A stretch of 46,150 nucleotides of DNA from a virus (lineage: Duplodnaviria > Heunggongvirae > Uroviricota > Caudoviricetes). Where the stretch lies: IMG/VR virus record IMGVR_UViG_2695420763_000017, positions 1 to 46,150 of that record; one strand, written 5' to 3'. Below the pieces are notes generated by a model. The model worked only from the letters and a program-made list of their open reading frames with translations, ran no database searches and had not been told where the DNA came from. Within the stretch, counting starts at the first letter, position 1, and each line of letters opens with the position of its first letter. The position numbers and the translations under genes are program-made. This document shows positions 3,282 through 36,755 of this stretch, piece by piece.

Positions 3282-3302
3282 GTGTATGGAGCGCTGAGAA
3301 GT

Positions 3303-3992
3303 ATGAATCAACAAGACTTGAATTTTGTCAGAATAGAATTACGTCGTGCGCTGTTTGACTTCTCTGGGGGGACAAAAGGGCAGCTTGAGGCTTTCACTGA
3401 ACACCCACCAGCAGACAAAAATGCCACTCCACGCCGTGGAATTCATCTTGTCGAACTCGAAGGTGATAAGGGACCACGCTTTGTTAACTCGCTTTCCGCG
3501 CCATTGTACGTGCAAGAAACACGTAGCCGCCCCAGGCCAATGCCGCCGATAAAAGATGTAGAATTTGAGTCCGCGCCGTGGCGTAGGGCAGTGTCCGCGC
3601 TTAGTGGATACCAGCAGGCTTGGTTGCGGTACTGTTACGGTTTTGACCTTAACTATACGCACCAGGTGATGATGTGTGAATACGTCTGGAAGGCTTATCA
3701 GAAATGCTTGGGTGAAAACTCACTTCAGGAGCGCGTAGTAAAAAAACTAATAGGCCTAGTATGGCTTGCAGGACAGGAAATTGCTGCAACCCGAAACAAT
3801 GAAACCTATAAAGACTACGCTGGTGCGGCGCTGGCCCGTATGGTTAGCGTTGACCGTTCGACATGGTTGCGCGTCTATTCAGGCCACTGGGCTGGGTTAA
3901 AGGCCGCTTTTACCCAGCTTGATGAGTCTGCGCTGGCCATGGCTCTTGAATACTATGAGGATGAAGAAGCTCTCAAAGTGGGAGAAATATGA
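3303..3992 (+). CDS. late-gene antiterminator Q-like protein
   Basis: Position directly upstream of a promoter-like site and a strong terminator, followed by lysis genes; sequence resembles the phage antitermination Q family as I recall it (not verified); alternative GTG start at 3282. Confidence 0.55.
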   Translation: MNQQDLNFVRIELRRALFDFSGGTKGQLEAFTEHPPADKNATPRRGIHLVELEGDKGPRFVNSLSAPLYVQETRSRPRPMPPIKDVEFESAPWRRAVSALSGYQQAWLRYCYGFDLNYTHQVMMCEYVWKAYQKCLGENSLQERVVKKLIGLVWLAGQEIAATRNNETYKDYAGAALARMVSVDRSTWLRVYSGHWAGLKAAFTQLDESALAMALEYYEDEEALKVGEI

Positions 3993-4022
3993 CGTAAATT
4001 TCACTATCTCCTTCAAACGCGC

Positions 4023-4051
4023 TTGCAAAATACAACAAAATAAGCCATATT
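4023..4051 (+). promoter_or_regulatory. putative late promoter (PR'-like)
   Basis: TTGCAA (4023-4028), 17-nt spacer, CATATT (4046-4051), about 35 nt upstream of the terminator hairpin, as expected for a Q-modified late promoter. Confidence 0.3.
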
Positions 4052-4085
4052 GGAAGCATATTTGATATGTTGCCAAAGTTTTATA

Positions 4086-4110
4086 AACCCGCCGACGAGC
4101 GGGTTTTTTG
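4086..4110 (+). terminator. intrinsic terminator (tR'-like)
   Basis: AACCCGC-CGACGA-GCGGGTT hairpin followed by TTTTTT. Confidence 0.7.
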
Positions 4111-4185
4111 ATATGCGACATAACCTATAACATTTTTTATAAAATAAAATATAATTGCTTTACCATTATCCTGTGAGTTGAGCAA

Positions 4186-4971
4186 ATGTATATATTTGAA
4201 TTGACCAAACCTGGCAACTGGCTTGAAAGTGAAGACAAAGAGTGGTCTTGGAAAATAGAACGGCTTTTGGACCATCTTGAATTTGCATTTTATGAGGCTA
4301 ATGTTGCATTAAATTTATTTATGCAGCAGCAAAACAATCAAATAGAACAACAAGGGGTTTCGCAATTGCAATGGGAAAAAGAAATGCAAGAACGAAGAAC
4401 CATCGAAACACTAGTTCGTGAGGAGTTAGGTTTATCCCCTTTTGAGAATCCTGAAAACATACAATTTGAGGTGGACGCGAGGTTTAAACGAGAAAAGTGG
4501 AGTTCTGGTGAAATTCCACGTAGCCACAAACATTGTGTGATTTTTATTTATGCAAAATCTTTTCTTTATTCTCTTGATACTATTGATAAATTTATAAAGG
4601 TTATTTCGAATGAACCTTATGCTCCTGAGTCGATAAAAGCCCTACACGATCAGATAGGTAAAGATTTTCCTGATCTCAGAGGGGTTAGGAATTCAACTCA
4701 ACACCTCGAAGATAGGGCTCGAGGGCTTGGCGCAGGGAGAGAACCGAAGCCTTTGAATCTCCAGCCTATAAGTAATACCTTCATAAATGCACCGCAAGGT
4801 GCTTTGATATTAAATAATCTGAATGGCACCAAATTCGGGTCAACTATGTCTGATGGTCACTATGGTGAAGTGGACATTTCACCTGAATCGTTATCAAAAA
4901 TGCAAAGTATTGTTCAGGGCGTACTTGACTCGTTTAAGTGGGTTGGTAATCAGCAACACTTACCAAGTTAA
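4186..4971 (+). CDS. hypothetical moron protein with HEPN-like R-x4-H motif
   Basis: 261-aa AT-rich ORF with its own TATAAT (4150-4155), bracketed by two terminators; motif R168-NSTQ-H173; product otherwise unrecognised. Confidence 0.7.
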   Translation: MYIFELTKPGNWLESEDKEWSWKIERLLDHLEFAFYEANVALNLFMQQQNNQIEQQGVSQLQWEKEMQERRTIETLVREELGLSPFENPENIQFEVDARFKREKWSSGEIPRSHKHCVIFIYAKSFLYSLDTIDKFIKVISNEPYAPESIKALHDQIGKDFPDLRGVRNSTQHLEDRARGLGAGREPKPLNLQPISNTFINAPQGALILNNLNGTKFGSTMSDGHYGEVDISPESLSKMQSIVQGVLDSFKWVGNQQHLPS

Positions 4972-4993
4972 CTAAACTTAATTATTCATATTA

Positions 4994-5020
4994 AGGCTGC
5001 CATATGGCGGCCTTTTTATT
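4994..5020 (+). terminator. intrinsic terminator
   Basis: AGGCTGCC-ATAT-GGCGGCCT hairpin followed by TTTTTATT. Confidence 0.65.
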
Positions 5021-5064
5021 CCCTTCACTTTTGAGAGGATTCACAGCAATTAAGAGGGGGCTAA

Positions 5065-5451
5065 ATGTCCGATCCGATTTCCGGCACAGGGTTAGCTGCT
5101 GGAGTCCTGACAGGCGCTAGTGTTTATGGACTGCTGACCGGAACTGATTACGGTGTTGTATTTGGCGCATTTGCAGGGGCTGTATTCTACATCGCAACAG
5201 CAGCAGATCTGAGTTTATCGCGTCGACTGGCATATTTTATCGTGTCGTATATTGCCGGAATCCTTTGCTCTGGGTTGGTTGGCTCCAAGCTGGCAAACTT
5301 GACCGGATACAGTGATAAACCTCTGGATGCTATTGGTGCCGTAATCGTCTCTGCTTTAGCCGTTAAAATCCTGACGTTTCTGAATAACCAGGATATCGGT
5401 TCGCTGGTGGCGCTTATAACGCGCCGGGGAGGTTCAGGTGGAGCTAAATGA
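5065..5451 (+). CDS. holin-like membrane protein
   Basis: Strong RBS AGAGGGGG; 128 aa with several Gly/Ala-rich hydrophobic helices; first gene of the lysis cassette. Confidence 0.65.
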   Translation: MSDPISGTGLAAGVLTGASVYGLLTGTDYGVVFGAFAGAVFYIATAADLSLSRRLAYFIVSYIAGILCSGLVGSKLANLTGYSDKPLDAIGAVIVSALAVKILTFLNNQDIGSLVALITRRGGSGGAK

Positions 5452-5719
5452 CCCGACAGCAACTATAAATGCGCTGTTATGTGCTTGTGTTGTTATTACT
5501 CTGATGTTTTATCGTCGTGGTGATTCGCGGCATCGTCCTTGGGTTTCACGTTTAGCCTGGCTGATTACTGTTACATACAGTGCTGTTCCGTTGGCCTATC
5601 TCTGTGGGATTTATCCCCATTCCTCATGGCCCATTATCGTGGCGAATACTATTTTTCTTTCCGTGCTGGTGGCCGTCAGAGGCAACGTTGCACGTCTGGT
5701 TGATCATCTGAGGCACTAA
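5438..5719 (+). CDS. holin/antiholin-like small membrane protein
   Basis: 93 aa, two to three TM helices, charged C-terminus; directly upstream of the endolysin, start overlapping it. Confidence 0.6.
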   Translation: MELNDPTATINALLCACVVITLMFYRRGDSRHRPWVSRLAWLITVTYSAVPLAYLCGIYPHSSWPIIVANTIFLSVLVAVRGNVARLVDHLRH

Positions 5720-6336
5720 TGAACCAACAATTATTTCAAAAGGCGGCTGGTATTAGCGCCGGGCTGGCTGCGCGCTGGTTTCCGCACATTGATGCTGCAA
5801 TGAAAGAGTTTGGAATCACAGCAGTTAACGATCAGGCCATGTTCATTGCACAAGTTGGGCATGAATCTGCTGGTTTTACCTCGCTGGTGGAAAGCTTCAA
5901 CTACTCGGTAGACGGGCTGAAGAAAACCTTTAGTAAACGCCTGACGCCTTATCAGTGTGAAATGCTGGGGCGTGTCGATGGTAATCAGGTAGCCCACCAG
6001 CCGCAAATAGCCAATCTGGTTTATGGTGACCGCATGGGGAATAACAGCCAGGGTGACGGCTGGAAATATCGCGGTCGTGGCCTGCTTCAAATCACCGGCC
6101 GCGAGAACTACGCCAAATGCGGTGCGGCGCTGAAGTTGGATCTGATCAGCACACCAGAGTTGCTGACACAGGAGAAACATGCAGCCCGTTCTGCTGCATG
6201 GTATTTCACATTACGTGGTTGTCTGATGTATTCAGGTGATGTTGTCCGTGTAACGCAGATCATCAACGGTGGCCAGAATGGACTGGCTGACAGAAATAGT
6301 CGTTATAACAAAGCGCGGGCGGCGTTGCTGGTATGA
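5719..6336 (+). CDS. endolysin, glycoside hydrolase family 19 (chitinase-like lysozyme)
   Basis: Motifs [27 protein letters not shown] and RVTQIINGG are typical of GH19 phage lysozymes. Confidence 0.85.
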
Positions 6337-6869
6337 CAGCGGTCTTTGCTTTTGTTCAGGCGCGGTGGAAAACAATCATTGTTTTGCTGATGTTGGCTGG
6401 TGCATTTCTTGCCGGGAACATCTGGAGTGAGCGGGGCTGGCAAAAGAAGTGGGCTGACCACAATAGCATGGAATCTTCACAGGAAGCGAACGCGCAGACT
6501 GCCGCACGCTGGATTGAACAAGGGCGCATAATTGCCCGTGATGAGGCTGTAAAAGATGCACAAGCACAAGCCGCTAAATCTGCTGCCACTGCTGCTGGCC
6601 TGTCTGCCACTGTTAGCCAGTTGCGTACCGAAGCAACAAAGCTTGCCGCACGCCTGGACGCCGCAAAGCACACCGCTGATCTTGCCGCTGCCGTCCGAAG
6701 CAAAACAACCGACGCCGACGCCGGAATGTTCGCCGACATGCTCGGAGATATTGCAGCAGAAGCTAAACGTTATGCTGGAATCGCTGACGAACGCTACACC
6801 GCCGGGATGACGTGTGAACGTATTTACGACTCGTTGAGAGAGTCAAATAACGCTATCCCCCACAATTGA
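6333..6869 (+). CDS. Rz: i-spanin (Rz-like)
   Basis: N-terminal TM helix then Ala/Gln-rich coiled-coil periplasmic domain; immediately after the endolysin. Confidence 0.75.
6556..6810 (+). CDS. Rz1: o-spanin lipoprotein (Rz1-like), embedded in Rz in the +1 frame
   Basis: ATG 6556; signal peptide with lipobox LLAC/LASC; proline-rich mature part; wholly nested in Rz in another frame. Confidence 0.65.
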
Positions 6870-6935: not shown

Positions 6936-7211
6936 ATGTCAAAGCAAGGATATGCAGTGAGTGGTCATAGTGATGGTTTAGCAGATATTTTGAGCATTGT
7001 AATTGTATTAGCAGTGGAACATTGGATTATCGCATCTCTCATAGTTGGTTTGATTATGTATCTAGTGGGGGCGAGCATAAACGAAAATGCTCAGACAAAT
7101 GCCGGTGCCATTGCATCGGGAATCATAGGGGTATGTGGTCAATTTATTTTTGGTTTTGGCGTTCTGGCTAGCATTATTGGGATTGTTAAATTCATTTGGA
7201 CCCACACCTGA
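6936..7211 (+). CDS. small hydrophobic membrane protein (moron)
   Basis: AT-rich 91-aa ORF with two or three TM helices; no clear SD at 6936, alternative GTG 6957. Confidence 0.45.
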   Translation: MSKQGYAVSGHSDGLADILSIVIVLAVEHWIIASLIVGLIMYLVGASINENAQTNAGAIASGIIGVCGQFIFGFGVLASIIGIVKFIWTHT

Positions 7212-7275
7212 CAGCATCACTTTAGTCAATCATAGCCTCGCAATAGCGGGGCTTTTTAACAACTGAGGTATGAGC

Positions 7276-7473: not shown

Positions 7474-7536
7474 TGGCATTCAGCAGGCATTCATTAAGTG
7501 TCTGCGATAATGCTATACGTTTTTTGGGGAGTGAAT

Positions 7537-7887
7537 ATGCCACCGCGCACACCAAAGGCTTGCCGTGTTCGCGGCTGTCGCAACACCACAACAGACCCAT
7601 CTGGCTACTGTGAAAATCACAAAGGTGAAGGCTGGAAGTCCTACAAGCCTGGTCAATCACGGCAGCAGCGAGGATACGGAACAAAGTGGGAAGTCATCCG
7701 GGAGCGGATACTTAAGCGCGACAAAGGGCTGTGTCAGAACCATCTACGGCAGGCGATAGTGAAGCAGGCGTCCTGCGTGGACCACATCAAGGCGAAGGCC
7801 CACGGCGGTACTGATGAAGACAGCAACCTTGAAAGCCTGTGCTGGTCGTGTCACGCAGCGAAGACCGCGCGTGAGCGGCTCAAGTGA
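7537..7887 (+). CDS. HNH endonuclease (terminase-associated)
   Basis: CRVRGC...CENH...CVDHIKAKAHGGTDEDSNLESLCWSCH; directly upstream of cos/TerS as in HK97-like phages. Confidence 0.85.
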   Translation: MPPRTPKACRVRGCRNTTTDPSGYCENHKGEGWKSYKPGQSRQQRGYGTKWEVIRERILKRDKGLCQNHLRQAIVKQASCVDHIKAKAHGGTDEDSNLESLCWSCHAAKTARERLK

Positions 7888-7889
7888 TA

Positions 7890-8010
7890 ATTAATGTCAT
7901 CATCAGACTGGGGAGGGGGAGGTCAAATCTCTGCGACCGCGCGCCTTCCGGACTGCCCGCCCCATCGTTTTTTTATACCCGCGAAAAATGAAATTTAACC
8001 AGGAGTGCCG
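7890..8010. other. putative cos/packaging-site region
   Basis: GC-rich block (GGGGAGGGGGAGG...CGACCGCGCGCC...CCCGCCCC) between AT-rich flanks, located between the HNH and TerS genes where cos lies in HK97-type phages; positional inference only. Confidence 0.3.
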
Positions 8011-8013
8011 CAT

Positions 8014-8508
8014 ATGGCTGGAACGGCGGGGCGTTCCGGGCGTCGCCCCAAGCCAACGGCGCGCAAGGCGCTGGCCGGAAACCCCGGCAAGCGAGCCCTG
8101 AACAAAGATGAACCTGTTTTTACGCCCATCAAAGGTGTTGAGCCACCAGAGTGGTTCGCTGAAGAAGATCTCCCTCTCGCCACGATCATGTGGCAACTGA
8201 CAACCAAAGAACTCTGCGGTCAGGGCCTGCTGTGCGTGACTGACCTGGCGGTACTTGAGCGGTGGTGCGTGGCCTATGAGTTCTGGCGACGTGCCGTGAA
8301 AAATATTGCCATACAGGGCAACACCATCACCGGTGCAATGGGCGGCAGGGTCAAAAATCCGGAGCTGACCGCCAAAAAAGAACAGGAGTCCGAGATGAGC
8401 AGCACGGGGGCAATGCTCGGACTCGACCCCAGCAGCCGCCAGCGTCTGATTGGCCTGGCGGGGCAGAAGAAAGCCACTAACCCGTTTCTGAAAATTATCG
8501 AATCATGA
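8014..8508 (+). CDS. terminase small subunit (P27-family-like)
   Basis: AGGAG RBS 8 nt upstream of ATG 8014; basic N-terminus; stop overlaps TerL start (ATGA). Confidence 0.8.
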
Positions 8509-10238
8509 GCCGGAAATCTTACCCCAACGTAAATGCTGCAAATCAGTATGCCCGGGATGTCGTGCGCGGAAAGATTGTTGCCTGCCAGTTTGTGATTCAG
8601 GCCTGCCAGCGCCATCTTGATGACCTGATGGCGGAAAAAAGTAAGTCGTTTCGTTACCGCTTCGACAAGGACCTGGCTGAACGGGCCGCGAAATTTATTC
8701 AGCTGTTGCCGCACACCAAGGGGGAGTGGGCATTCAAACGGATGCCCATCACGCTGGAGCCGTGGCAGCTCTTTGTGATCTGCTGTGCGTTTGGCTGGGT
8801 CAATAAAGGCACCCGGTTGCGCCGCTTCCGGGAGGTGTACACCGAAATCCCCCGTAAGAACGGCAAATCAGCAATCTCTGCCGGTGTTGCCCTGTATTGT
8901 TTTGCCTGTGATAACGAGTTTGGCGCGGAAGTGTATTCCGGTGCCACGACAGAGAAACAGGCGTGGGAAGTCTTTCGCCCGGCGCGACTGATGTGTAAAC
9001 GCACACCCATGCTGACGGAAGCGTTCGGGATTGAGGTTAACGCCTCAAACATGAACCGTCCGGAGGATGGCGCGCGGTTTGAACCGCTGATCGGCAACCC
9101 AGGTGATGGTTCATCACCCCACTGTGCCGTGGTTGATGAATATCACGAGCATGCCACCGATGCGCTTTATACCACAATGCTTACCGGGATGGGGGCGCGA
9201 CGTCAGCCACTGATGTGGGCCATCACCACCGCCGGGTACAACATTGAGGGGCCGTGCTACGACAAGCGGCGGGAAGTCATCGAGATGCTCAACGGCTCGG
9301 TGCCTAACGATGAACTGTTCGGGATCATCTATACCGTTGATGAAGGTGACGACTGGACTGACCCGCAGGTGCTGGAAAAAGCCAATCCAAATATTGGCGT
9401 GTCGGTTTATCGCGAATTTTTGTTAAGTCAGCAGCAGCGTGCGAAAAATAACGCCCGTCTGGCAAACGTCTTTAAAACAAAACACCTCAATATCTGGGTG
9501 TCGGCGCGTTCGGCGTATTTCAACCTGGTGAGCTGGCAGAGCTGCGAGGATAAATCACTGACCCTTGAGCAGTTCGAGGGGCAGCCGTGCATTCTGGCCT
9601 TTGACCTGGCTCGTAAGCTGGATATGAACAGCATGGCGCGACTTTATACCCGCGAGATTGACGGTAAAACGCATTACTACAGTGTGGCCCCGCGCTTCTG
9701 GGTACCGTATGACACGGTGTACAGCGTCGAGAAAAATGAAGATAGACGGACAGCCGAACGCTTTCAGAAATGGGTGGAAATGGGCGTCCTGACCGTTACC
9801 GATGGTGCAGAGGTGGATTATCGCTACATCCTCGAGGAGGCCAAAGCGGCGAACAAAATCAGCCCGGTCAGTGAGTCACCCATCGACCCCTTCGGGGCGA
9901 CCGGGCTGTCACATGACCTTGCTGATGAAGATCTGAATCCCGTCACTATCGTCCAGAACTTCGCCAATATGTCCGATCCGATGAAAGAGCTGGAAGCAGC
10001 GATTGAATCGGGACGCTTTCATCATGACGGCAATCCCATCATGACCTGGTGTATCGGCAATGTGGTCGGCAAAAACATGCCAGGTAACGATGATTTAGTG
10101 AAGCCCGTCAAGGAGCAGGCGGAAAACAAAATCGATGGTGCGGTTGCACTGATTATGACGATCGGTCGGGCAATGCTCAAAGAACCTGACGATTTCCTCT
10201 CATCTCTTGATCCGGACGATGATCTCTTAATTCTATGA
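8505..10238 (+). CDS. terminase large subunit
   Basis: 577 aa; ATPase-like N-terminal half (KNGKSAIS Walker A-like) and nuclease-like C-terminal half; conserved position. Confidence 0.95.
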
Positions 10239-10396
10239 AATCACTAATTGCTGATGTTATCGGGCTGGCTGGTTTTGGCCTGCTTACGTGCGGGGTTTAC
10301 CTGCAGTTTGGTATGGCTCCGGCTCTGATTTTGTCCGGTGCTTTACTGCTGGTGGGCGCACTGGCTATGGCCAGAAGGGGGACGCGTGCTGCTTGA
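10235..10396 (+). CDS. small membrane protein (53 aa)
   Basis: ATG 10235 overlaps the TerL stop; [53 protein letters not shown] gives two hydrophobic helices; below the ORF-track length cutoff. Confidence 0.3.
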
Positions 10397-11612
10397 TGCT
10401 CTGTTCAGAAGTAAATCACTGGAGAATCCTTCCACCCCGATAACCGGTGATGCCGTTGATACTGATGGGCTGTTCCGGGCAGACGTTTATGTCAGTCCTG
10501 AGACTGCGATGAAACTGGCTGCGGTGTATTCCTGTATCTATGTCCTGTCTTCCAGCCTTGCCCAGATGCCGTTGCATGTTATGCGCAGGCACAAGGGGAA
10601 GGTTGAACCCGCACGCGATCATCCGGCGTTTTATCTGGTTCATGATGAGCCCAATACCTGGCAAACCAGCTACAAATGGCGCGAACTGAAGCAACGTCAC
10701 ATCCTTGGCTGGGGGAATGGGTATACCTGGGTGAAACGTAATCGTCGCGGTGAAGTTATATCCCTGGATTGCTGTATGCCGTGGGAAACGACGCTGATGA
10801 ATACTGGTGGCCGATATACCTACGGTTTGTACAACGAATATGGGGCGTTTGCGATCAGTCCGGACGATATGATCCACATCCGTGCGCTGGGTAATAATCA
10901 GAAGATGGGGCTGAGTCCGATTATGCAACATGCCGAAACAATAGGCATGGGGATGAGCGGTCAGAAGTACACAGAAAGCTTCTTCAGCGGTAATGCCCGT
11001 CCGGCGGGGATAGTATCCGTTAAAAGCGGACTCAATAAGGAAAGCTGGGGCTGGCTTAAAGATCAGTGGCAGAAGGCATCGCAGGCGTTACGCCGCCAGG
11101 AAAACAAAACCATGCTGCTGCCAGCCGATCTGGATTACAAGGCACTGACTGTGTCGCCAGTTGACGCTCAGATCATTGACATGATGAAGCTGAACCGTTC
11201 AATGATCGCCGGTATTTTCAATATTCCTGCGCACATGATTAATGACCTCGAAAAAGCCACCTTCTCCAATATTTCTGCGCAGGCGATTCAGTTTGTCCGC
11301 TACACGATGATGCCGTGGGTGACGAACTGGGAGCAGGAGCTTAACCGTCGCTTGTTTACCCGCGCTGAGTTAGCCGCCGGGTATTACGTCAGGTTCAATC
11401 TGACGGGGCTTTTACGCGGAACTCCGCAGGAGCGCGCGCAATTCTATCACTTCGCTATTACCGATGGATGGATGAGCCGTAATGAGGCCCGCGCATTCGA
11501 GGATATGAATCCGGTTGAAGGGCTGGACGAGATGCTGGTAAGCGTGAATGCTGCTAACCTGGCAGGAGATTTTAAGCCCCCAAAAAACGATGAGGGAAAA
11601 ACCAATGAATGA
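10386..11612 (+). CDS. portal protein (HK97-type)
   Basis: About 410 aa following TerL; start ambiguous (GTG 10386 with GGGGGA RBS, or upstream 10338). Confidence 0.9.
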   Translation: MLLDALFRSKSLENPSTPITGDAVDTDGLFRADVYVSPETAMKLAAVYSCIYVLSSSLAQMPLHVMRRHKGKVEPARDHPAFYLVHDEPNTWQTSYKWRELKQRHILGWGNGYTWVKRNRRGEVISLDCCMPWETTLMNTGGRYTYGLYNEYGAFAISPDDMIHIRALGNNQKMGLSPIMQHAETIGMGMSGQKYTESFFSGNARPAGIVSVKSGLNKESWGWLKDQWQKASQALRRQENKTMLLPADLDYKALTVSPVDAQIIDMMKLNRSMIAGIFNIPAHMINDLEKATFSNISAQAIQFVRYTMMPWVTNWEQELNRRLFTRAELAAGYYVRFNLTGLLRGTPQERAQFYHFAITDGWMSRNEARAFEDMNPVEGLDEMLVSVNAANLAGDFKPPKNDEGKTNE

Positions 11613-28117: not shown

Positions 28118-29671
28118 ATGGGTATTGAAAGTGAATTGATAGAATTCCTTGAGCGCAGCGTCAAAGATGGTGCGAATAAGGCTAGGGATATTGAAATTGT
28201 AAAATTCTACTATGGTCTAAATGACTCGCCTTGGCCCACATTAGATGAAACTGCAAGCCGATTTGGTGTTGGTACCAGAGAAAGAATTAGGCAGTTACTA
28301 AATTTCAAATTCCGAAATAATGTCAGCAAAAACTCTATTCCATCGCTAGGCAAAGTTATTAAAGTTTTGCAGTCCAGAGAATATTGGTTGCTCTCAGAGT
28401 TTGAAGAAGAAACTTATAATGCGGGGCTGGTCGAGAAGGAAAGCCACTTAAAGGGAATATTTAATTTAATTGAGGATGTCAACCTTGATTGTGGGTTCGA
28501 TTTTTACACTCCGGAGTTAAAGCGAGCCACGAGAAACTCGATTGTAACTAGTAAGAATATATTCTTGATCAGGAATTCTGCTATCAAGAACGTTGAAAAG
28601 TTGCTCAAAAAAGCAAAAATTCTCCCGGGACGCTGCGGTATTGCAAATTTAAATTATCTAAAAGAAGAGATGGGTCAGTACTATTCGCTCGTTTCATTGT
28701 TAATTGCAAATGCGCCTACGTCTTGGGTTAGAGTGATTGACGATAATTACTGGTATGTTTTTGAGAATAGAGATAACACCATTATCAACTACAGCGAAAA
28801 GGTTTTTGGTGTTTTTGAAAACTGTGATCCATCTAGATTGGCAGAGACATATAGAAATGCCCTTAATGGAAGGAGTAATAAGTACCCGTATCCACCAGCA
28901 GAAGTTATCGATGACTATTTAAGAAGTTCTATCTATATGATTAATACGCATTCTGGACTAAAATTCATCGGTGAAAAAAACAAGCTTAATGAGATCGAAA
29001 AAGATTTAATATCTTTTTTGGACTCTTCCGGAAGCGTCTCATTTTCAACGCTTTATAAATATTTGTTGCAAAAAGGTTATGGGAAGCCGCATATATTAAA
29101 AACTACGAATTTTTCACCATTAGTATATGTAGATAAGACCAAAGGTAGAAAACATTATATGTATAGCTTAGTTGGTCATCGAATTTCTGCACATAATAAC
29201 ACCTCAGAGATGGATAAATATGAAATTTATCTTCGTAGATTAAGAGCTCTTCTCGATGTTGGAACGGATGAGACAAGAGAGCAGAAAGCTAGAAAAGAGC
29301 AGCATATTTTACAAGAGTGGCTTTTTAAGGATAAAACGCATGAGACCTGCGCTATCTGCGGAAAAGAGTTCAGCGTAAAAACGTTAGTAACGGCACATAA
29401 AAAGCCGAGATCAGACTGCAATGATGCAGAACGCTTAGATCCATATATTGTAATGCCAGTGTGTTTGATGGGGTGCGATTATCTTTACGAAAATATGTAT
29501 ATCTATATTGACGGTACTGAAATTAAACGTGGTCTGACGTTATCGAACGCAAGGAGTGAATCAAGAGTCATTGATGACCTTGTTGGGCGAAAAGTTGAAC
29601 CAAAATGGCTTTTAGGAAATCAGTCTTATTTTCGTTCGCCTAACAAAGAATTGCAGCGGATAAGTCGCTGA
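28118..29671 (+). CDS. HTH (sigma-70 region-4-like) plus C-terminal HNH-like nuclease protein, unknown function
   Basis: AAGGAG RBS; N-terminal LDETASRFGVGTRERIRQLL; C-terminal CAICGKEF...TAHKKPRSDCNDAERLD...PVCLMGCD (about residues 410-455); AT-rich. Confidence 0.75.
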   Translation: MGIESELIEFLERSVKDGANKARDIEIVKFYYGLNDSPWPTLDETASRFGVGTRERIRQLLNFKFRNNVSKNSIPSLGKVIKVLQSREYWLLSEFEEETYNAGLVEKESHLKGIFNLIEDVNLDCGFDFYTPELKRATRNSIVTSKNIFLIRNSAIKNVEKLLKKAKILPGRCGIANLNYLKEEMGQYYSLVSLLIANAPTSWVRVIDDNYWYVFENRDNTIINYSEKVFGVFENCDPSRLAETYRNALNGRSNKYPYPPAEVIDDYLRSSIYMINTHSGLKFIGEKNKLNEIEKDLISFLDSSGSVSFSTLYKYLLQKGYGKPHILKTTNFSPLVYVDKTKGRKHYMYSLVGHRISAHNNTSEMDKYEIYLRRLRALLDVGTDETREQKARKEQHILQEWLFKDKTHETCAICGKEFSVKTLVTAHKKPRSDCNDAERLDPYIVMPVCLMGCDYLYENMYIYIDGTEIKRGLTLSNARSESRVIDDLVGRKVEPKWLLGNQSYFRSPNKELQRISR

Positions 29672-29758
29672 AGACGGTGTTATGTTGAGACTGCTAACTT
29701 CCTGTTTTTGTTGGTGTTGTCCTAACACTGTCTAATCATGATTGGTGGGCTGGCGGGA

Positions 29759-29940
29759 GTTGAAACCGCAGACACGTCGTATGCAAGAACGTGCTGCGGT
29801 TGGCTGGTCAGCTTCTGATAGTGAGAATATTGAATGATTTCAAGCTGTTATCGATTTTACGTATTTTTTGCATGAAAAGATTAGCACCTCATCCCACCGC
29901 TCCTCCATGATTTTACACCACTGTCTCTAGAGCTCTGTGT
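29759..29940 (+). repeat. leader element copy B (paralogous to 27705-27890)
   Basis: Colinear similarity to copy A including inverted repeat GCAGACACGT-N12-ACGTGCTGC. Confidence 0.55.
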
Positions 29941-30060
29941 GCCAGAAGCGGAAGTTCATACCTCTAAGTGGATATTTTGTTAAAATATGCCATCAAAATC
30001 CTTGCTACCTCATGGTTGACAGTGATAAAAGTTGCACAAATTACTGAGAGAGAAATTACA

Positions 30061-30498
30061 ATGAGTGGAGATACCTCTGAGTTTCCTAATAAACTTCCCA
30101 GAAAGCCAATTGGTTGGCGTGAAGAATATAGTGATTTTACAGGTAGTATTATATTCTATATGATATTCCCGTTGCTTCCATTACTTTTTGAGTCAATTAA
30201 CACAGGAACTCACCCTACAATACAATCATTAACAATTACTGCATCAATATACTCTTTTTCCATCGGTGTATCTTCTCGAGATAAAGCTATTTTTTGCTTA
30301 GGGATTTTTTGTGGTTTCATTCTCGCTTATCTTTACGGTAAAGTTAGTGAGCCAAAAGTTATTATATATACCTGGTACTATGTAGTTACGGTGATACTAC
30401 TGGCTGTAATATTTATATTTCATCTTCTCGAACGATTTAATAAACACGTGGTAGAATGTGAGCCTGTTTTCTCCTTTAAGTTTACGAGAGGTATGTAA
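30061..30498 (+). CDS. small polytopic membrane protein (about 4 TM)
   Basis: GAGAGAG RBS then ATG 30061 (ORF track extends to 29968); hydrophobic helices throughout. Confidence 0.55.
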   Translation: MSGDTSEFPNKLPRKPIGWREEYSDFTGSIIFYMIFPLLPLLFESINTGTHPTIQSLTITASIYSFSIGVSSRDKAIFCLGIFCGFILAYLYGKVSEPKVIIYTWYYVVTVILLAVIFIFHLLERFNKHVVECEPVFSFKFTRGM

Positions 30499-30965
30499 TG
30501 GAGGATATTATATTTATGTATGCTGGGTTGATAGTGTCTTCTTTAGCGGCAATTGTAGGCTTAGCTACATCTATCATGCATACTCGTAAAAAAGTTAAAG
30601 CTAATGAAGAGCTTGCAACTGAAATGGCAAAGAGCTTTAGTGAGCTTGAATCTATCAATAAAAGCATAGGGGATTTGGAAGCGACAATTAAAAGGATAGA
30701 TGAAGATGAATTAAAGTTAAGAATAGCAATTGAATCTTTAAAGGAAATGATTTCTGATGAAAAAAAAGAATCTAGGGATATGTTGAAAACCATCGTTAAT
30801 GATGAGGTGTTCATTAAAGTTCTTCTCGAAAGCTATAAAAAACTGGATACCCAGTCAAAGAAGGAGATTTATTTGACTTTTTCCAAGTCGACAGATAGAG
30901 GCCTTTATCGATATATAAAAAGAATAGCTTCATCAGTACTCGATAACTTAATGGTTAAAATATAA
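30498..30965 (+). CDS. membrane-anchored coiled-coil protein
   Basis: N-terminal TM helix (AGLIVSSLAAIVGLATSIM) then charged heptad-like region; start overlaps upstream stop (ATGTAATGG). Confidence 0.6.
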   Translation: MEDIIFMYAGLIVSSLAAIVGLATSIMHTRKKVKANEELATEMAKSFSELESINKSIGDLEATIKRIDEDELKLRIAIESLKEMISDEKKESRDMLKTIVNDEVFIKVLLESYKKLDTQSKKEIYLTFSKSTDRGLYRYIKRIASSVLDNLMVKI

Positions 30966-31520
30966 ATGCGTGCGCGCGAGATACAATTTCTCGCGCATTG
31001 TGTAACCGGCGACAAAACCCTGTTATCATTATAGCGACCCGTTTAGATGGGCTATTTGTGCCCCAACAGCTTCTGGGTATAGATTTCCTCGGCCCTGTAT
31101 AGATACTTTGCTAAAGAGTATTTTAATGGGATTTTGCTTACGTACCATTCTTCTAACGAATGTCTGCCTTATCCTGTGAGCTGCCTTCGCTCAGCATTGG
31201 CCTGTTTCTCGTTGATTTATATACTGCGACACTAACATAGGCGGATATGTCCGCTCCTCGCTCATAACAGACATTCACTACAGTTATGGCAGAAAGGTAT
31301 GCATGCTGGGTGGGGAAAGTATGAAGGAAAAGAAAACTGCTGCGCTGTTTGTCGTCACGTTTATCTTCATTGGCTATGCAAGTCATAATACAAGGTGGGA
31401 CAAAACTGAGACACATAAGGCCTCACAATGGCTTGCAAGGCTTTACATGTTTTGATGTGGTGGGACGTGTGAGCGCAGTGTTGATGGGGTAATGCTTTGA
31501 ATTAGAAGCGGATTCTTATA

Positions 31521-31732: not shown

Positions 31733-32947
31733 GTGAAACTCAATGCCCGTCAAATAGACACTGCCAAGCCAAAAGAGAAGGCTTACAAGCTGGCTGATGG
31801 TGGTGGTCTGTATCTCTTGGTAAAACCTAGTGGAGGAAAATATTGGCGCTTCAAGTATCGTGTAGCTGGTAAAGAGAAGCTGTTAGCACTAGGTGTGTAT
31901 CCTGAAGTTACCTTGGCTGATGCTCGTGCAAAACGTGAAGAAGCTAAAAGGGGTATCGCTGGGGGTATCGATCCGATGGAAGCGAAACGAGAGGAAAAGA
32001 TTGCCCGGGAAACGCAGTTAAACAACACCTTCAAAGATATTGCCCTTGAGTGGCACAGCAGCAAATTAAAAAAATGGTCTGCTGGTTATGCTTCAGACAT
32101 CCTCGAAGCCTTCAACAAAGATGTGTTCCCTTACATTGGCAAAAAACCAATCGCCGAAATCAAACTACTTGAACTGCTGAATGTGCTGCGGCGCATCGAG
32201 GGGCGCGGTGCTACCGAAAAAGCCAAAAAAGTGAGGCAGCGATGTGGGGAAGTTTTCCGCTATGCAATTGTCACTGGACGTGCTGAGTATAACCCTGCAC
32301 CGGATCTCACCAGCGCGATGCAAGGTCATGAATCTAATCATTATCCTTTCCTCACAGCCAAAGAATTACCTGATTTTTTCAAGGCATTGTCCAGTTACTC
32401 AGGAAGTGCATTGGTTGTTATGGCGGCTCGTTTACTGATTATCACCGGTTTGCGGACTGGCGAACTGCGCGGTGCATTATGGGATGAAATCGATCTCAAC
32501 AAGGCTATCTGGGAGATACCTGCTTCACGGATGAAAATGCGTCGCCCTCATGTAGTGCCTTTGTCTGAGCAGGCTCTTTCGCTTATTGGGCAGATTAAAG
32601 AACTAACTGGCAATTATCCGCTTATGTTTCCCGGCCGTAATGATCCAAGGAAAACAATGAGCGAGGCTAGCATAAACCAAGTATTTAAACGCATCGGCTA
32701 TAACGGAAAGGTTACTGGTCATGGCTTCCGGCACACTATGAGCACCATTTTGCATGAGCAGGGCTATAACACCGCGTGGATAGAGACACAGCTTGCGCAC
32801 GTCGATAAAAACTCAATTCGTGGCACATACAACCATGCGCAATATCTGGATGGGCGGCGGGAAATGCTTCAGTGGTACGCTGATTATATGGATTCGCTCG
32901 AGCATGGCGGAAATGTGGTGCATGGTGAGTTCGGAAAATGCGGGTGA
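31733..32947 (+). CDS. int: tyrosine integrase, P4 family
   Basis: GTG 31733 with GGAGG RBS; N-terminal arm-binding motif GGLYLLVKPSGGKYWRFKYR; catalytic region with HGFRHT and terminal tyrosine region; immediately downstream of the att core. Confidence 0.95.
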   Translation: MKLNARQIDTAKPKEKAYKLADGGGLYLLVKPSGGKYWRFKYRVAGKEKLLALGVYPEVTLADARAKREEAKRGIAGGIDPMEAKREEKIARETQLNNTFKDIALEWHSSKLKKWSAGYASDILEAFNKDVFPYIGKKPIAEIKLLELLNVLRRIEGRGATEKAKKVRQRCGEVFRYAIVTGRAEYNPAPDLTSAMQGHESNHYPFLTAKELPDFFKALSSYSGSALVVMAARLLIITGLRTGELRGALWDEIDLNKAIWEIPASRMKMRRPHVVPLSEQALSLIGQIKELTGNYPLMFPGRNDPRKTMSEASINQVFKRIGYNGKVTGHGFRHTMSTILHEQGYNTAWIETQLAHVDKNSIRGTYNHAQYLDGRREMLQWYADYMDSLEHGGNVVHGEFGKCG

Positions 32948-33075
32948 CTGGTTGAGTATACAGTAGTAGACTTTGAGCGACGAAAGAAAAGGCTGTGTCT
33001 AGGGTCGCTCCCGAAAATCCGTACACCTCGACGGACTGGTACAGCCACTACAGTAGAGGACGCTGAGGTGTGCGT

Positions 33076-33873
33076 ATGATTGATATTCATGCCGAATTAA
33101 ACGAATACAAAAAAGATTTTATTTCTTTACGTGAATTTCTTGAGGTCGTGCTTAAGGTCGCTGGTGATGATTATGATGTTTCAGATGTCATAACTTGGAT
33201 ACTCAGGAGAATAAGCGGAGAACATATCCGCCTGTACACAGTAAATGAATTTAAGCTGTTGGAATCTTTTTGTAACCCGTATCGGGATGAATTTGATAAT
33301 GATGTTCTTTATAGAAATCTGAATGCGGTTCGGAAACGTGGTTGTTTACCTGGTGAGAGGGATGAAAATGGTTTTCTGGTGTCCGGTTATTGGGAAGATC
33401 CCGAATTTGAGAACATTGGATTTATAAGGGGTGAAATTTTCGCAATTTTTCCCGATGTCCTTGACGCGTTAACGAAGCTGGAAGGCGCTAACTCTTCTGA
33501 AAATGACGAGGCACAAGGACGCGATATTGAAAAGAAAGAGTTGCGTACAGAGGATGATTTATTATCCCAAATCGCAATGCTGGAAAAAGAAAACGCAGAG
33601 TTAAGGGCAAGGATAGAGCAGTTAGAGCAAGAGCGCCCGATACACTTATATAAATACTGGGATAAAGACCCATTAGCTAAGGCTATTGAGATTAGAAACA
33701 GAGAGTGGGCCAATTACGATCCAGAAAATGATTTTGCCACCAGGGGAAATCAAGAAGCGATAACCAGGGAGCTTAAGCAGTGGGGGGCAAGTAATGCACT
33801 TGCAACGCTCATAGAGAGGACTGCCTGCCCTATTAACCGAGACAACAGCCAAAAGAACGCAAAGCCGGATTAA
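33076..33873 (+). CDS. hypothetical acidic coiled-coil protein (cargo next to int)
   Basis: GAGG RBS then ATG 33076; central EKENAELRARIEQLEQE coiled coil; unrecognised. Confidence 0.6.
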   Translation: MIDIHAELNEYKKDFISLREFLEVVLKVAGDDYDVSDVITWILRRISGEHIRLYTVNEFKLLESFCNPYRDEFDNDVLYRNLNAVRKRGCLPGERDENGFLVSGYWEDPEFENIGFIRGEIFAIFPDVLDALTKLEGANSSENDEAQGRDIEKKELRTEDDLLSQIAMLEKENAELRARIEQLEQERPIHLYKYWDKDPLAKAIEIRNREWANYDPENDFATRGNQEAITRELKQWGASNALATLIERTACPINRDNSQKNAKPD

Positions 33874-33888
33874 CGCACCATACCGCAT

Positions 33889-34034
33889 ACCCTGAGGGTG
33901 ATTTACTGTTACCCTGAGGGTATTTTTTTATCTTCCCCGTCAATTTTACCATCACCCTTAGGGTAGATTTCCTCCCGATTACCATCACCCTTAGGGTAGA
34001 TTTCCTTCCGGTAACCATTAGGCCTGAGGGTATG
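33889..34034. promoter_or_regulatory. array of five palindromic sites ACCCT(G/T)AGGGT (putative operator)
   Basis: Sites at 33889-33899, 33911-33921, 33955-33965, 33988-33998 and a variant near 34023; two lie in a 26-bp direct repeat ACCATCACCCTTAGGGTAGATTTCCT. Confidence 0.5.
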
Positions 34035-34100
34035 AAAATATTCGTTATTTCTGTGCCATGATTACCTCGTCAAATTGAGTAGACGTTATGAGGTAAATAT

Positions 34101-34298
34101 ATGTCAAATACGCTTATTCGTTTAACAGAAGTTCAGCGTAGAACTGGATATAGCAAGGCATGGATTTATCGCCTTATGGGGCAAGGTAAATTTCCTGCAT
34201 CAGTTAAAATTGGCTCGCGAGCTATTGCTTTCGTTGAGAGTGAAATTGACGAGTGGATTAATCAGCGTATTGCGGAATCACGCGGAACAGCTACCTGA
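34101..34298 (+). CDS. alpA: AlpA-family transcriptional regulator / excisionase-like protein
   Basis: GAGG RBS; LIRLTEVQRRTGYSKAWIYRLMGQGKFPASVKIGSRAIAFVESEIDEWI matches the AlpA HTH family. Confidence 0.85.
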   Translation: MSNTLIRLTEVQRRTGYSKAWIYRLMGQGKFPASVKIGSRAIAFVESEIDEWINQRIAESRGTAT

Positions 34299-34375
34299 TT
34301 AAATGGCTACGGGGCTATTGCCCCCAGCTATCCACCAGCAAATAAAAGTAACTTAATTCGATAGCAGGAGTTTTT

Positions 34376-35176
34376 ATGAAATTTCCAAAAACGCCCGTAC
34401 AGGGGCGGGGCTTCGTTCGGCCTGAAAACCAGAATCTGCAAAATTTCGGCGAAATTATCCCGATTATTTCCGGCGTTATTGGCGGGAGTGAAACCACTAT
34501 TGTTAGCGCCAGAGCGTTACATAAGGCGTTAGGTGTAGGGCGCGTTTTCCGTTCGTGGATCAAGGGGCGCATTGAAGAATATGGGTTCACGGAAGGCGTG
34601 GATTATGAGGTTGTTGAATATTTGAGCCGACCCGATCCGGTGAGCGCAAAATCTCGCCAGCAAACCGCTCTTGAGTACATCATCACAGTGAACATGGCGA
34701 AAGAACTGGCGATGGTCGAACGTACCGAACAGGGCCGCGCCGTTCGCCAGTACTTTATCAAATGCGAGGAGGAGCTACACAAGGTTGCGCCTGTTCGTTC
34801 CGCAGCGTTACGCCGGGAACTGAAAGCCCGTATCACAGTTGCCAGCTACTTTAAGCCAATGTGTGCCGCGCTGGAGGCGTACCGGGCTGAACTGGGTAAA
34901 AACACACTCCAGCACCACTACACCACGGAAGCGAACATGCTGGCGCGTATCGTGCTGGGTGGCATGACTGCAAAACAGTGGGCACTGGCGAACGGCATTA
35001 CAGGCGAACCACGCGACCACATGAGTACGTTGCAGCTTGAGCACCTTTCTTACCTTGAGCAGAGCAATATCACGCTGATTGAGTTAGGCCAGGACTACCA
35101 CCAGCGGAAGGCTGAATTAATTCGTCTTTCGCAGCGTTGGTTAGCCCGTCGCATGGAGGAAAACAGCCATGTGTAA
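34376..35176 (+). CDS. phage antirepressor-like / regulatory protein
   Basis: AGGAG RBS; 266 aa; N-terminal domain resembles antirepressor/Rha-type regulators (inference from memory). Confidence 0.55.
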   Translation: MKFPKTPVQGRGFVRPENQNLQNFGEIIPIISGVIGGSETTIVSARALHKALGVGRVFRSWIKGRIEEYGFTEGVDYEVVEYLSRPDPVSAKSRQQTALEYIITVNMAKELAMVERTEQGRAVRQYFIKCEEELHKVAPVRSAALRRELKARITVASYFKPMCAALEAYRAELGKNTLQHHYTTEANMLARIVLGGMTAKQWALANGITGEPRDHMSTLQLEHLSYLEQSNITLIELGQDYHQRKAELIRLSQRWLARRMEENSHV

Positions 35177-35635
35177 CGCTCTGACCGTTACAAAAAGAGA
35201 AAGCGCCCCGTTGCCGGAGCGCCTTTGTGAACGAATAGCCTACTGCGCCATATTGCTTACTGTCTACGAGGCAGATTATAGCGTTGTGGTCGCACAGAGT
35301 GAAGGCGCTGATCACCGTTACTACAGCACGCCAGAAATGCAGAATATTTTGCTGCAAAATGTCGTTGGTCACACTGTCCGGAAAGCAAAAAATTTTGCTG
35401 GTGGCGCGACTGATGCGATTTTGTCAGGTCGCCAGGTGCTGATCAATCTGATGTCTGATTTCGTTCTGGATAAAACAAAGGCGACCGCAGAGGGCCGCCA
35501 GTGGGAAAGCTACATACCTGAACGCATCGCCAACAATGCCAGATTTACGGCTGGTGGGCAATGTGTCAGCTTTGCACCAATGACTCTATGTTTAACTGAG
35601 GGTCATTATGGTGAATATGCTGGCTTGCTGGTGGG

Positions 35636-35836
35636 CTATTCCTGCTCTTTAACATTGCCATGCCGCGATGTTTTCCAGGTATGCGACCCCATTTTTGTGC
35701 GCCTGTACTCTTTAAGGAATTTCTCAAGGACAAACGCACAGGGCGCGAATCTGTCTGACTCATGCTCGTACGCTATCTTTCTGCGCTGTCTTTTCCGTGC
35801 CGGTGATGGTGTATTGGTTGATTCTTTGTTGGTCAT
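35636..35836 (-). CDS. small hypothetical basic protein
   Basis: Minus-strand ORF downstream of the RHH gene; ends in the same ...KEQE-stop and shared 17-bp DNA repeat; could be non-coding. Confidence 0.3.
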   Translation of the reverse strand: MTNKESTNTPSPARKRQRRKIAYEHESDRFAPCAFVLEKFLKEYRRTKMGSHTWKTSRHGNVKEQE

Positions 35837-35893
35837 GGCGCTGCCCTGTAAAATAATGCACCGTAGTTCCTCACACCACGGCACCTATAGTGG

Positions 35894-36199
35894 TTATTCC
35901 TGCTCTTTAGCTTTGCGCCGCTGGAGTTCTTCACGCGCGACGGTGACGAGTTGCCCGATTTCCTCGGCAGCTTTGACTCCGATTTTTTCCACCTGCGCTA
36001 GGGCATCGAGCGAAGAAACCAGGGGATTTTCTCCGCTTCCTTCTGCCTGGCGGCGGGCGATTTCACCGCGAACGGCTGTAATCACGAAAGCGGCTATTGT
36101 TTCCCCTTCCGTTTTCGAATTTTCCATTTCCTCGATTACATCATGGGGGAAGCGGATATTTTTCATTTGCGATCTGCTGTTGATGTTTCCTGTTGCCAT
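35894..36199 (-). CDS. Arc/MetJ-type ribbon-helix-helix repressor-like protein
   Basis: KNIRFPHDVIEEMENSKTEGETIAAFVITAVRGEIARR fits a beta-strand plus two-helix RHH fold; transcribed leftward from the divergent region (alternative start 36166). Confidence 0.55.
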   Translation of the reverse strand: MATGNINSRSQMKNIRFPHDVIEEMENSKTEGETIAAFVITAVRGEIARRQAEGSGENPLVSSLDALAQVEKIGVKAAEEIGQLVTVAREELQRRKAKEQE

Positions 36200-36261
36200 C
36201 AGAATGTCCGGTTATTTTGAGGTGTGTACACATTACACCAAAAGGTGTGTTGATAAAACAC

Positions 36262-36291
36262 TTGACACTGTAGCACACTTAAATTTAATTT
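36262..36291 (+). promoter_or_regulatory. putative rightward early promoter within divergent operator region
   Basis: TTGACA (36262-36267), 17-18 nt spacer, TTAATT/TAATTT; flanked by GTGTACAC-type palindromes. Confidence 0.3.
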
Positions 36292-36389
36292 GTATACACA
36301 CCAATTGTTGTGGTGTATATACAGCAACGCCCCGCAGTGGTGGCACACATGCAGGGCGTCTAACCAAACCGTTAAACGAGGTAACGATT

Positions 36390-36755
36390 ATGGCTGGAAC
36401 ACAGCATACCCAAACTCACCCTAAATTTATATACACCTTCCTGGCGGTGCACCGTGATTGCATTGCTGACGGTAAAAACACTGTACACGTAGCCGCCGAT
36501 ACGCTGGTTGATGCCTGCGAGATGCTCAATGACATGGGCTATATCTCGGCAACATGGAAAGGGCGCGAAGAAAACACGCTGTTTATTCAGAAATGCGAAA
36601 ACAATTTTATCTGGCGTTTTATCGCCCTGAGTACGGCACAACCGCGCGTGATTCACATCGAGGCCACCAGCGAACAGGAAGCACGCCAGCAATCTCCTGA
36701 TGGCTGCGTGATGGTATTCGCTGCCCGTATTCGCCAGGAGGTGGAGCATGTGTAA
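36390..36755 (+). CDS. hypothetical protein, first gene of rightward operon
   Basis: GAGG RBS 8 nt upstream of ATG 36390; 121 aa; in-frame distal part of the long 35169-36755 open frame. Confidence 0.6.
   Translation: MAGTQHTQTHPKFIYTFLAVHRDCIADGKNTVHVAADTLVDACEMLNDMGYISATWKGREENTLFIQKCENNFIWRFIALSTAQPRVIHIEATSEQEARQQSPDGCVMVFAARIRQEVEHV

Follow-up and report, generated by a model that had tools for sequence, protein, structure and literature searches.

The motif R-x4-6-H is the catalytic signature of HEPN RNases in many Abi and toxin proteins, and the interval between the antiterminator gene Q and the lysis genes of lambdoid phages is a classic moron site, as exemplified by stx in Stx phages. 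In this study, we analysed a 46,150-nucleotide stretch of DNA from a virus of the Caudoviricetes (IMG/VR record IMGVR_UViG_2695420763_000017, positions 1 to 46,150; hereafter the window) and followed up one open reading frame (ORF) at positions 4186–4971 on the + strand, which begins with ATG, spans 786 bp and encodes a protein of 261 residues that is a 'hypothetical protein' in RefSeq (WP_000275196.1). The protein contains an R-x4-H motif and its gene lies between a Q gene and a lysis cassette. The reading that we favour, and hold with slightly more confidence than doubt, is that the ORF encodes a solo HEPN-like RNase which acts in abortive infection and is carried as cargo of a terminator-insulated bay in a lambdoid prophage of E. 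coli.

Among described systems, HepS of the Salmonella prophage Gifsy-1 is a validated solo-HEPN abortive-infection anticodon nuclease that senses the tail-tip protein of siphoviruses and cleaves tRNAs in the anticodon loop, its own prophage having a non-triggering variant (Sargen et al., Nature 2026, PMC13043305). Like HepS, the 261-residue protein is a single prophage protein without a partner, has the canonical R-x4-H motif (R100-H105 in HepS), is encoded at an accessory-gene site of a lambdoid prophage, would be constitutive in the lysogen and would have to avoid self-triggering. A helical hairpin, a beta-rich insert and an extra E-D-R set its family apart from HepS. Homology to HepS was considered and rejected, as the motif position and genomic site differ, there was no sequence match and HepS was not among the top 60 structural matches. 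A second point of comparison is 3JRT (Vpc_cass2; Sureshan et al. 2013, PMC3548836), which is listed as an 'Integron cassette HEPN' with the Rx4-6H motif (PMC3710099), and which its crystallographers assigned to the KNTase_C clan, describing the helix order 1-2-3-alpha'-alpha''-4 and singling out Arg103 and the conserved His109 (PMC3548836). In both proteins, additional elements are placed between helices 3 and 4, whereas 3JRT is about 100 residues shorter and has neither the beta-rich insert nor a helical hairpin between helices 1 and 2. Similarly, the Abi_2 proteins (AbiD-AbiF, PF07751) are single-gene and have a hydrophobic-R-N-x-x-x-H motif, but are about 340 rather than 261 residues long with another architecture, and profile comparisons with them were not significant (0.2% and 0.8% probability).

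A first line of evidence for our reading is the conservation of the motif. The chance expectation of R-x4-H in a 261-residue protein is about 0.3, as estimated from residue frequencies, so a single occurrence could be chance and the motif is meaningful because it is conserved. The initial annotation had noted R168-NSTQ-H173, and residues 168, 169 and 173 are indeed R, N and H; its further expectation that the motif residues would be conserved in homologues was borne out in an alignment of 268 family members with identities down to about 30%. Arginine occupies position 168 and histidine position 173 in 99% of the sequences (264/268 in each case), position 169 is N or D in 99% (N in 231 and D in 34), position 170 is S or T in 98%, position 175 is E or D in 99%, position 176 is D or E in 97% and R177 is conserved in 97%. 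In addition, position 131 is aspartate in 95% (255/268), compared to only about 78% conservation for N39 and N43. These positions give R-[ND]-[ST]-x-x-H-x-[ED]-[DE]-R together with D131 as the signature of the family, and they are the most conserved polar positions of the protein. The HEPN signature as published comprises Rx4-6H with a polar residue (N, D or H) right after the arginine, the motif being at the end of helix 3 with a conserved acidic residue nearby on helix 2 (Anantharaman et al. 2013, PMC3710099). Both the R-x4-6-H spacing and the polar residue, at position 169, were found across the 268 sequences.

The predicted fold of the protein is in keeping with this description. An AlphaFold2 model built from a 36-sequence alignment had a mean predicted local distance difference test score (pLDDT) of 89 and a predicted template modelling score of 0.82 and was mostly helical, with helices at residues 18–55, 60–81, 89–106, 112–142, 148–160, 164–167, 170–178 and 233–248 and strands at 6–8, between 211 and 230, and at 257–259. 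The topology was derived from mean-field direct-coupling analysis of 267 sequences (196 effective sequences) and not from inspection of the model coordinates. The strongest couplings match hairpins of the prediction, namely 215–230 and 218–226 in the beta hairpin and 69–103 and 80–99 between helices 60–81 and 89–106, and since these couplings recover the predicted hairpins the coevolution signal is real. Helix 18–55 couples with 112–142 (e.g., 37–117 and 28–129), helix 112–142 couples with 233–248 (133–243 being the second strongest coupling overall), 148–161 couples with 233–248 (161–235) and 128–138 couples with 165–174 (128–172, 134–165 and 136–174). The all-alpha four-helix core of HEPN proteins can therefore be recognized in prediction, with H1 at 18–55, H2 at 112–142 (containing D131), H3 at 148–178 and H4 at 233–248, a helical hairpin probably being inserted between H1 and H2 and a beta-rich insert between H3 and H4. 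The beta hairpin 215–230 couples with residues 167–171 and so may pack on the motif segment.

Around residues 168–173, the prediction has helix 148–160 followed by breaks, short helices at 164–167 and 170–178, then the beta-rich insert and helix 233–248, which would place R168-H173 near a distorted end of H3. An acidic residue on helix 2 near the motif is represented by D131, given its 95% conservation and the couplings between 128–138 and 165–174; D131 would lie opposite residues 167–168, a placement that is interpolated because invariant residues cannot covary. These couplings and the position of D131 agree with the published HEPN description (PMC3710099), including a non-helical distortion like that of 3JRT. 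The top natural structural match of the model was a HEPN protein, and the scores of individual matches were 7.8 for kanamycin nucleotidyltransferase, 7.1 for the aminoglycoside nucleotidyltransferase ANT(4'), 7.0, 6.9 and 6.8 for the HEPN toxins 5YEP, 7AE2 and 8XDJ, and 6.8 for Csx1. Therefore, the fold evidence is consistent with HEPN, but is not specific to it.

The second line of evidence is the position of the gene. The initial annotation placed an AT-rich ORF of 261 residues at 4186–4971 between a Q antiterminator and lysis genes, and the position, length, low GC content and identity of both neighbours were verified. GC content is 0.33–0.43 over 3900–5100 versus about 0.49–0.58 on both sides. 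The locus comprises the following features:

3282–3992, + strand: Q-type late-gene antiterminator, the left conserved flank (PF06323 Phage_antiter_Q, 3.6e-37; phrog_304, 1.3e-71; RefSeq bacteriophage antitermination protein Q)
3993–4084, + strand: spacer from Q to terminator 1, about 93 nt, near-identical in the Q module of the E. coli Nissle (EcN) prophage
4085–4112, + strand: intrinsic terminator 1 of the Q module, at the position of lambda tR' (8-bp stem, 5 GC pairs, T-run)
4111–4992, + strand: low-GC cargo unit (moron) of a promoter-like site and one ORF, delimited by GC content and by alignments with prophages having only the flanks in common
4127–4155, + strand: sigma-70-like promoter candidate ATAACA-17-TATAAT (10/12 consensus positions)
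4576–4578, + strand: codon of D131, the conserved acidic residue (D in 255/268 homologues; coevolution)
4687–4716, + strand: codons of R168-N-S-T-Q-H173-L-E-D-R177, the predicted active-site motif (conservation)
4993–5020, + strand: intrinsic terminator 2, in the holin-side flank (9-bp stem, 6 GC pairs, T-run)
5065–6869, + strand: lysis cassette, the right conserved flank, with two holins, a GH19 endolysin and a DUF2514 protein (PF16931, PF05449, PF00182, PF10721)

The hairpin of terminator 1 (4085–4106) with its T-run has a folding energy of -12 kcal/mol (z -3.5) and that of terminator 2 (4993–5014) with its T-run has -17.5 kcal/mol (z -4.7), and for neither did any of 200 shuffles fold equally well. 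The spacer at 3993–4084 presumably houses the late promoter and Q-utilisation site, by analogy with PR'/qut of lambda; the promoter scan reported no site within it. There is no second ORF inside 4111–4992, and the intergenic gaps around the gene are such that a second gene would not fit.

Comparisons with other E. coli prophages defined the boundaries of the insert. The 1.2-kb region recurs without change in 25 of 5426 complete E. coli genomes, always with a 'hypothetical protein' between Q and holin, and one flank only was matched in another 210. On the left side, the EcN prophage matches the window from the end of Q through the 93-nt spacer and terminator 1, and similarity stops at 4110, beyond which it has a small ORF, an S49 peptidase, a type II methyltransferase and then a different holin. 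On the right side, the prophages of strains C3728 and VE-T9 have the same holin module, and similarity begins at the hairpin of terminator 2, which is retained in both despite sequence changes (the VE-T9 version having -13.1 kcal/mol). The gene order of these two prophages is alike, with an antirepressor or KilA-N gene, DUF968, Q, cargo, two holins and an endolysin, but the cargo of C3728 is a gene for a 356-residue protein of unknown function on the opposite strand and that of VE-T9 is a DUF6602 protein matching NucC-like PD-DExK nucleases (PADLOC, 6e-19) together with a 73-residue ORF. As both terminators are kept with other cargo, they are part of the flanks and the inserted unit is about 4111–4992. 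The terminators by which the initial annotation had bracketed the gene are thus real hairpins, although they belong to the conserved flanks and not to the moron.

As judged from these alignments, the Q-to-holin interval is an insulated cargo bay closed by two flank-owned terminators, and the finding of other cargo there in related E. coli prophages corroborates the proposal that the interval between Q and the lysis genes is a moron site. The unit has the characteristics of a moron in that it is an extra gene between conserved genes with deviant GC content and a promoter-like site, the downstream terminator being supplied by the flank. It resembles lambdoid Q-to-lysis morons such as stx in being a low-GC gene that has a promoter-like site of its own and is located 3' of Q and tR' and 5' of the holin, and in the cargo gene being missing from related prophages. 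It differs from stx morons in that its cargo is a predicted cytoplasmic HEPN-like protein rather than a secreted toxin, and in that the slot is shut on both sides by conserved flank terminators. By analogy, terminator 2 may keep transcripts of the cargo out of the lysis genes in the lysogen.

The gene recurs at the same site in other prophages. Four different Klebsiella prophages have a 60%-identical homologue in the same Q-to-holin slot, again in the arrangement terminator, gene, terminator, and prophages of Leclercia and Citrobacter have a homologue between a PF03589-type Q and the holin. Overall, homologues adjoin three unrelated Q families (PF06323, PF06530 and PF03589). In three of the four Klebsiella loci, an opposite-strand ORF of 51–86 residues lies between tR' and the homologue (- strand, at 5653–5895, 5634–5894 and 5739–5894 of the respective loci), and none was called in the fourth; this small ORF had no Pfam or PADLOC match and is not in the E. 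coli window.

Outside of prophages, homologues occur in a variety of mobile and defence-type contexts. In Vibrio parahaemolyticus the homologue is a single-ORF integron cassette among 11 attC-like repeats in an array that includes a HEPN_AbiV cassette, and in Photobacterium sanctipauli it is flanked by the same kind of attC-like repeats. The 4,168-bp Psychrobacter plasmid pA53P1 has a homologue as its sole accessory gene in addition to rep, relaxase and mobC, and on other small plasmids homologues are beside an Abi_2 gene (Acinetobacter) and RelE or YafQ toxin-antitoxin pairs (Acinetobacter and Proteus). A Desulfuromonadales homologue is among a RES-Xre pair, a 991-residue AAA_21 ATPase and a type I restriction-modification system, a Limnobacter homologue is near a PIN-Phd pair, and the homologue of Chromobacterium is alone with a GC content of about 0.50 versus about 0.66 for the genome. 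In Pseudidiomarina marina, the homologue (8001–8783) is in a 3.3-kb segment, possibly a small mobile element, between 300-nt direct repeats that are 97% identical (6951–7250 and 10211–10510). In Shewanella kaireitica, it is about 2 kb from duplicated tRNA genes and 70-nt tandem repeats (locus 4600–5950), which suggests an island at a tRNA locus.

All-against-all clustering of the neighbouring ORFs of 50 full-length loci from different species revealed no conserved partner gene, the neighbour clusters that recurred being those of ABC ATPases and two-component regulators, which are ubiquitous and were at varying distances. The description of the gene as a single-gene unit was thereby upheld. A HEPN-MNT pair or other type II toxin was rejected since there is no adjacent antitoxin ORF in 4111–4992 and no recurring neighbour family. 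An RNA antitoxin was rejected likewise, as the window flanks of the ORF lack tandem repeats and their matches in Rfam were all below threshold, namely to attenuator-leader families at the two terminators. Based on these comparisons, the gene appears to act alone and to travel with mobile elements and defence genes.

The family to which the protein belongs is large. A word-indexed search identified 416 homologues, and 1.84 billion cluster representatives (at the 50% identity level), searched exhaustively with a profile, yielded 970 at E <= 0.001, of which 433 were at E <= 1e-30. Nearly all are 250–280 residues long and match end to end, indicating a fixed architecture, and all named members are 'hypothetical protein'. 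Their hosts are mostly Gamma- and Betaproteobacteria, with others in Desulfuromonadales, Campylobacterales, one Alphaproteobacterium, one Acidobacterium and a Deinococcus plasmid. The E. coli protein still has 50–55% identity to homologues in very distant hosts, which points to horizontal spread of the family. The protein matched PHROG 5322 (1.4e-124), of unknown function, and had no match in Pfam, NCBIfam or PADLOC, permissive thresholds included. Neither WP_000275196.1 nor the motif peptides were found in the literature searched or in the DefensePredictor supplements, some files of which were truncated. A paper on Vibrio integron defence names a HEPN-like cassette 'Esos', and its supplement contained neither 'Esos', 'HEPN' nor peptides of the family; a relation to Esos is possible. 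No description of the family was found, and the protein probably belongs to an undescribed HEPN-like family.

Several results weigh against assigning this protein to the HEPN RNases and to defence. None of Pfam (which has many HEPN families), NCBIfam and PADLOC gave a HEPN match for the protein, and 53 divergent members compared with Pfam and PADLOC yielded scattered noise only, such as a non-significant match of one member to the KEN-domain family PF06479 (E 0.12). Among PDB sequences, a profile search yielded no hit better than E 0.97, and Foldseek searches of the model against PDB and BFVD gave nothing at E <= 0.001. With hhalign, a 35-sequence Abi_2 profile gave no match (0.8% probability). 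Residues 170–190 are the lowest-confidence part of the model (pLDDT 60–66) and the helix after the motif is short, the helix mapping comes from secondary structure and the coevolution of about 200 effective sequences rather than from coordinates, and the insert positions differ from that of the usual HEPN insert, which is between helices 2 and 3. The HEPN signature does not extend to the invariant E-D-R that follows the histidine, and these residues could mean a different chemistry. In addition, no isolated phage genome with the gene was found by tblastn among 50,697 phage records, and the promoter scan overall was not above chance (5 sites versus 3.6 expected from shuffled sequence) in what is an AT-rich region. 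The 'own TATAAT' of the initial annotation is present as a site at 4127–4155 with 10 of 12 consensus positions, and an own promoter there, for expression in the lysogen, is plausible.

Separately, a relationship to Abi_2 was rejected on the basis of single-sequence hhalign, in which the alignment was confined to FPDLRGVRNSTQH and LQVLGEIRNVCAHH (the R-N-x3-H segment; 0.2% probability), and comparison with an AbiV-type HEPN protein gave nothing. Membership in a known family was rejected as well, searches of Pfam, NCBIfam, PADLOC and PDB sequences with the protein, its profile and the 53 divergent members all being empty. Detectable profile similarity to an established HEPN family is thus missing, and membership of the HEPN superfamily, which is most likely, rests on the motif, fold class and topology and not on detectable sequence homology. 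This outcome qualifies two proposals of the initial annotation. The expected HEPN four-helix bundle is matched by the motif, the predicted core and the coevolution topology, but there is no profile-level HEPN homology and the fold is non-specific. The candidate abortive-infection RNase is favoured by motif conservation, standalone contexts and the cargo site, with the same lack of HEPN profile homology against it.

Possibly, the protein is a conflict or defence effector but not a HEPN RNase, D131, R168, N169, H173, E175, D176 and R177 forming a different active site on a helical scaffold, such as that of a metal-dependent nuclease or phosphodiesterase or of a nucleotide-modifying enzyme. We consider this credible if unlikely. 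The conservation of E/D175, D/E176 and R177, which are outside the HEPN signature, equals that of R168 and H173, there is no HEPN profile match, and the mobile and defence contexts would suit any effector equally. However, the protein conforms exactly to the published HEPN signature in its R-[ND]-x3-H spacing, its polar residue next to the arginine and the nearby acidic residue on the preceding helix, its best natural structural match is a HEPN protein, and there are no conserved His, Asp or Glu residues over several helices, unlike in typical di-metal bundles. It seems distinctly unlikely that the protein is a new single-protein immune effector whose D131/R-[ND]-[ST]-x-x-H-x-[ED]-[DE]-R site is capped by the beta hairpin and has a chemistry new to defence systems. 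If true, such a non-HEPN effector would be spreading as one of the smallest self-contained modules in prophage late operons, integrons and minimal plasmids.

A different role, that of a stress or maintenance RNase which slows host growth under stress or favours retention of the element rather than acting against phages, was proposed by Anantharaman et al. for the integron-cassette HEPN of the 3JRT family (PMC3710099). Such a role would fit with the homologues that adjoin toxin-antitoxin pairs on small plasmids and with the homologue that is the only cargo of a 4.2-kb plasmid. We nevertheless regard it as quite improbable for this protein, as the lack of a conserved antitoxin partner makes classical post-segregational killing unlikely, and a bay that also hosts a NucC-like nuclease and a methyltransferase, along with restriction-modification and Abi neighbours elsewhere, suits defence better. 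It is very improbable indeed that the gene serves a late lytic function of the phage itself, such as lysis timing, host shut-off or RNA turnover, since despite its late-operon position directly 5' of the holins in several prophage types it has homologues of 50–55% identity without nearby phage genes (in integron cassettes, plasmids and chromosomes), is missing from related prophages that have unrelated cargo in the slot, was found in none of the isolated phages and has the low GC content and promoter-like site that mark cargo.

Under the favoured reading of a solo HEPN-like RNase in abortive infection, the gene would be transcribed in the lysogen from its own promoter, with transcription stopping at terminator 2 before the holin, and the protein would be kept inactive. 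A component of an infecting phage would then activate it to carry out metal-free RNA cleavage via R168 and H173 with the assistance of N169 and D131. By analogy with other HEPN defence nucleases, the likeliest target would be tRNA or another RNA of translation, so that translation would halt and the infection would abort. During lytic growth of the prophage, Q-modified polymerase would, as in lambda, pass both terminators. The cargo would thus be part of a late transcript of its own prophage, and the prophage must therefore avoid activating it. The beta hairpin 215–230, given its predicted packing on the motif, is the strongest candidate for a sensing or auto-inhibitory element.

Other parts of the window also have features of interest. 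A 91-residue ORF at 6936–7211 (+ strand), directly 3' of the DUF2514 gene, has a GC content of about 0.38, several hydrophobic segments and no Pfam match, and has the appearance of a second small moron. Within the ORF at 7498–7887 (+ strand), just 5' of the small and large terminase genes, an HNH endonuclease is annotated in RefSeq, an HNH-terminase order that is the usual packaging arrangement. An AT-rich block at 25200–31200 (GC content down to 0.33), which follows a tail-fibre assembly gene (25390–25977), contains a PglD_N/hexapeptide acyltransferase (26192–26881), an ORF of 517 residues and unknown function (28118–29671) and two further ORFs of unknown function (29968–30965). None of the ORFs of this block had a PADLOC match, and the block is possibly cargo at the prophage end. 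The region 31733–46150 begins with a P4-type integrase (31733–32947; Arm-DNA-bind_3, Phage_int_M and Phage_integrase), followed by a D5_N/DUF5906/Pox_D5 primase-helicase (38041–39846) and AT-rich ORFs of unknown function, and looks like a second integrative element abutting the prophage, perhaps a P4-like satellite. Within it, the ORF at 34376–35176 had a weak PADLOC match to the candidate family PDC-S22 (2.9e-9).

The question of how a prophage would avoid triggering its own cargo, as posed by this gene, is the one solved for HepS in Gifsy-1. The gene is short (786 bp), comes from E. coli and has clear candidates for catalytic residues, making it easy to test. In addition, the bay is loaded with different defence-like genes by different prophages and is therefore a practical site to mine for new systems. 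As no Pfam, NCBIfam or PADLOC model exists for the family, annotators of defence systems that depend on models would miss it. If the gene does defend, this widespread family would join the set of one-gene abortive-infection nucleases.

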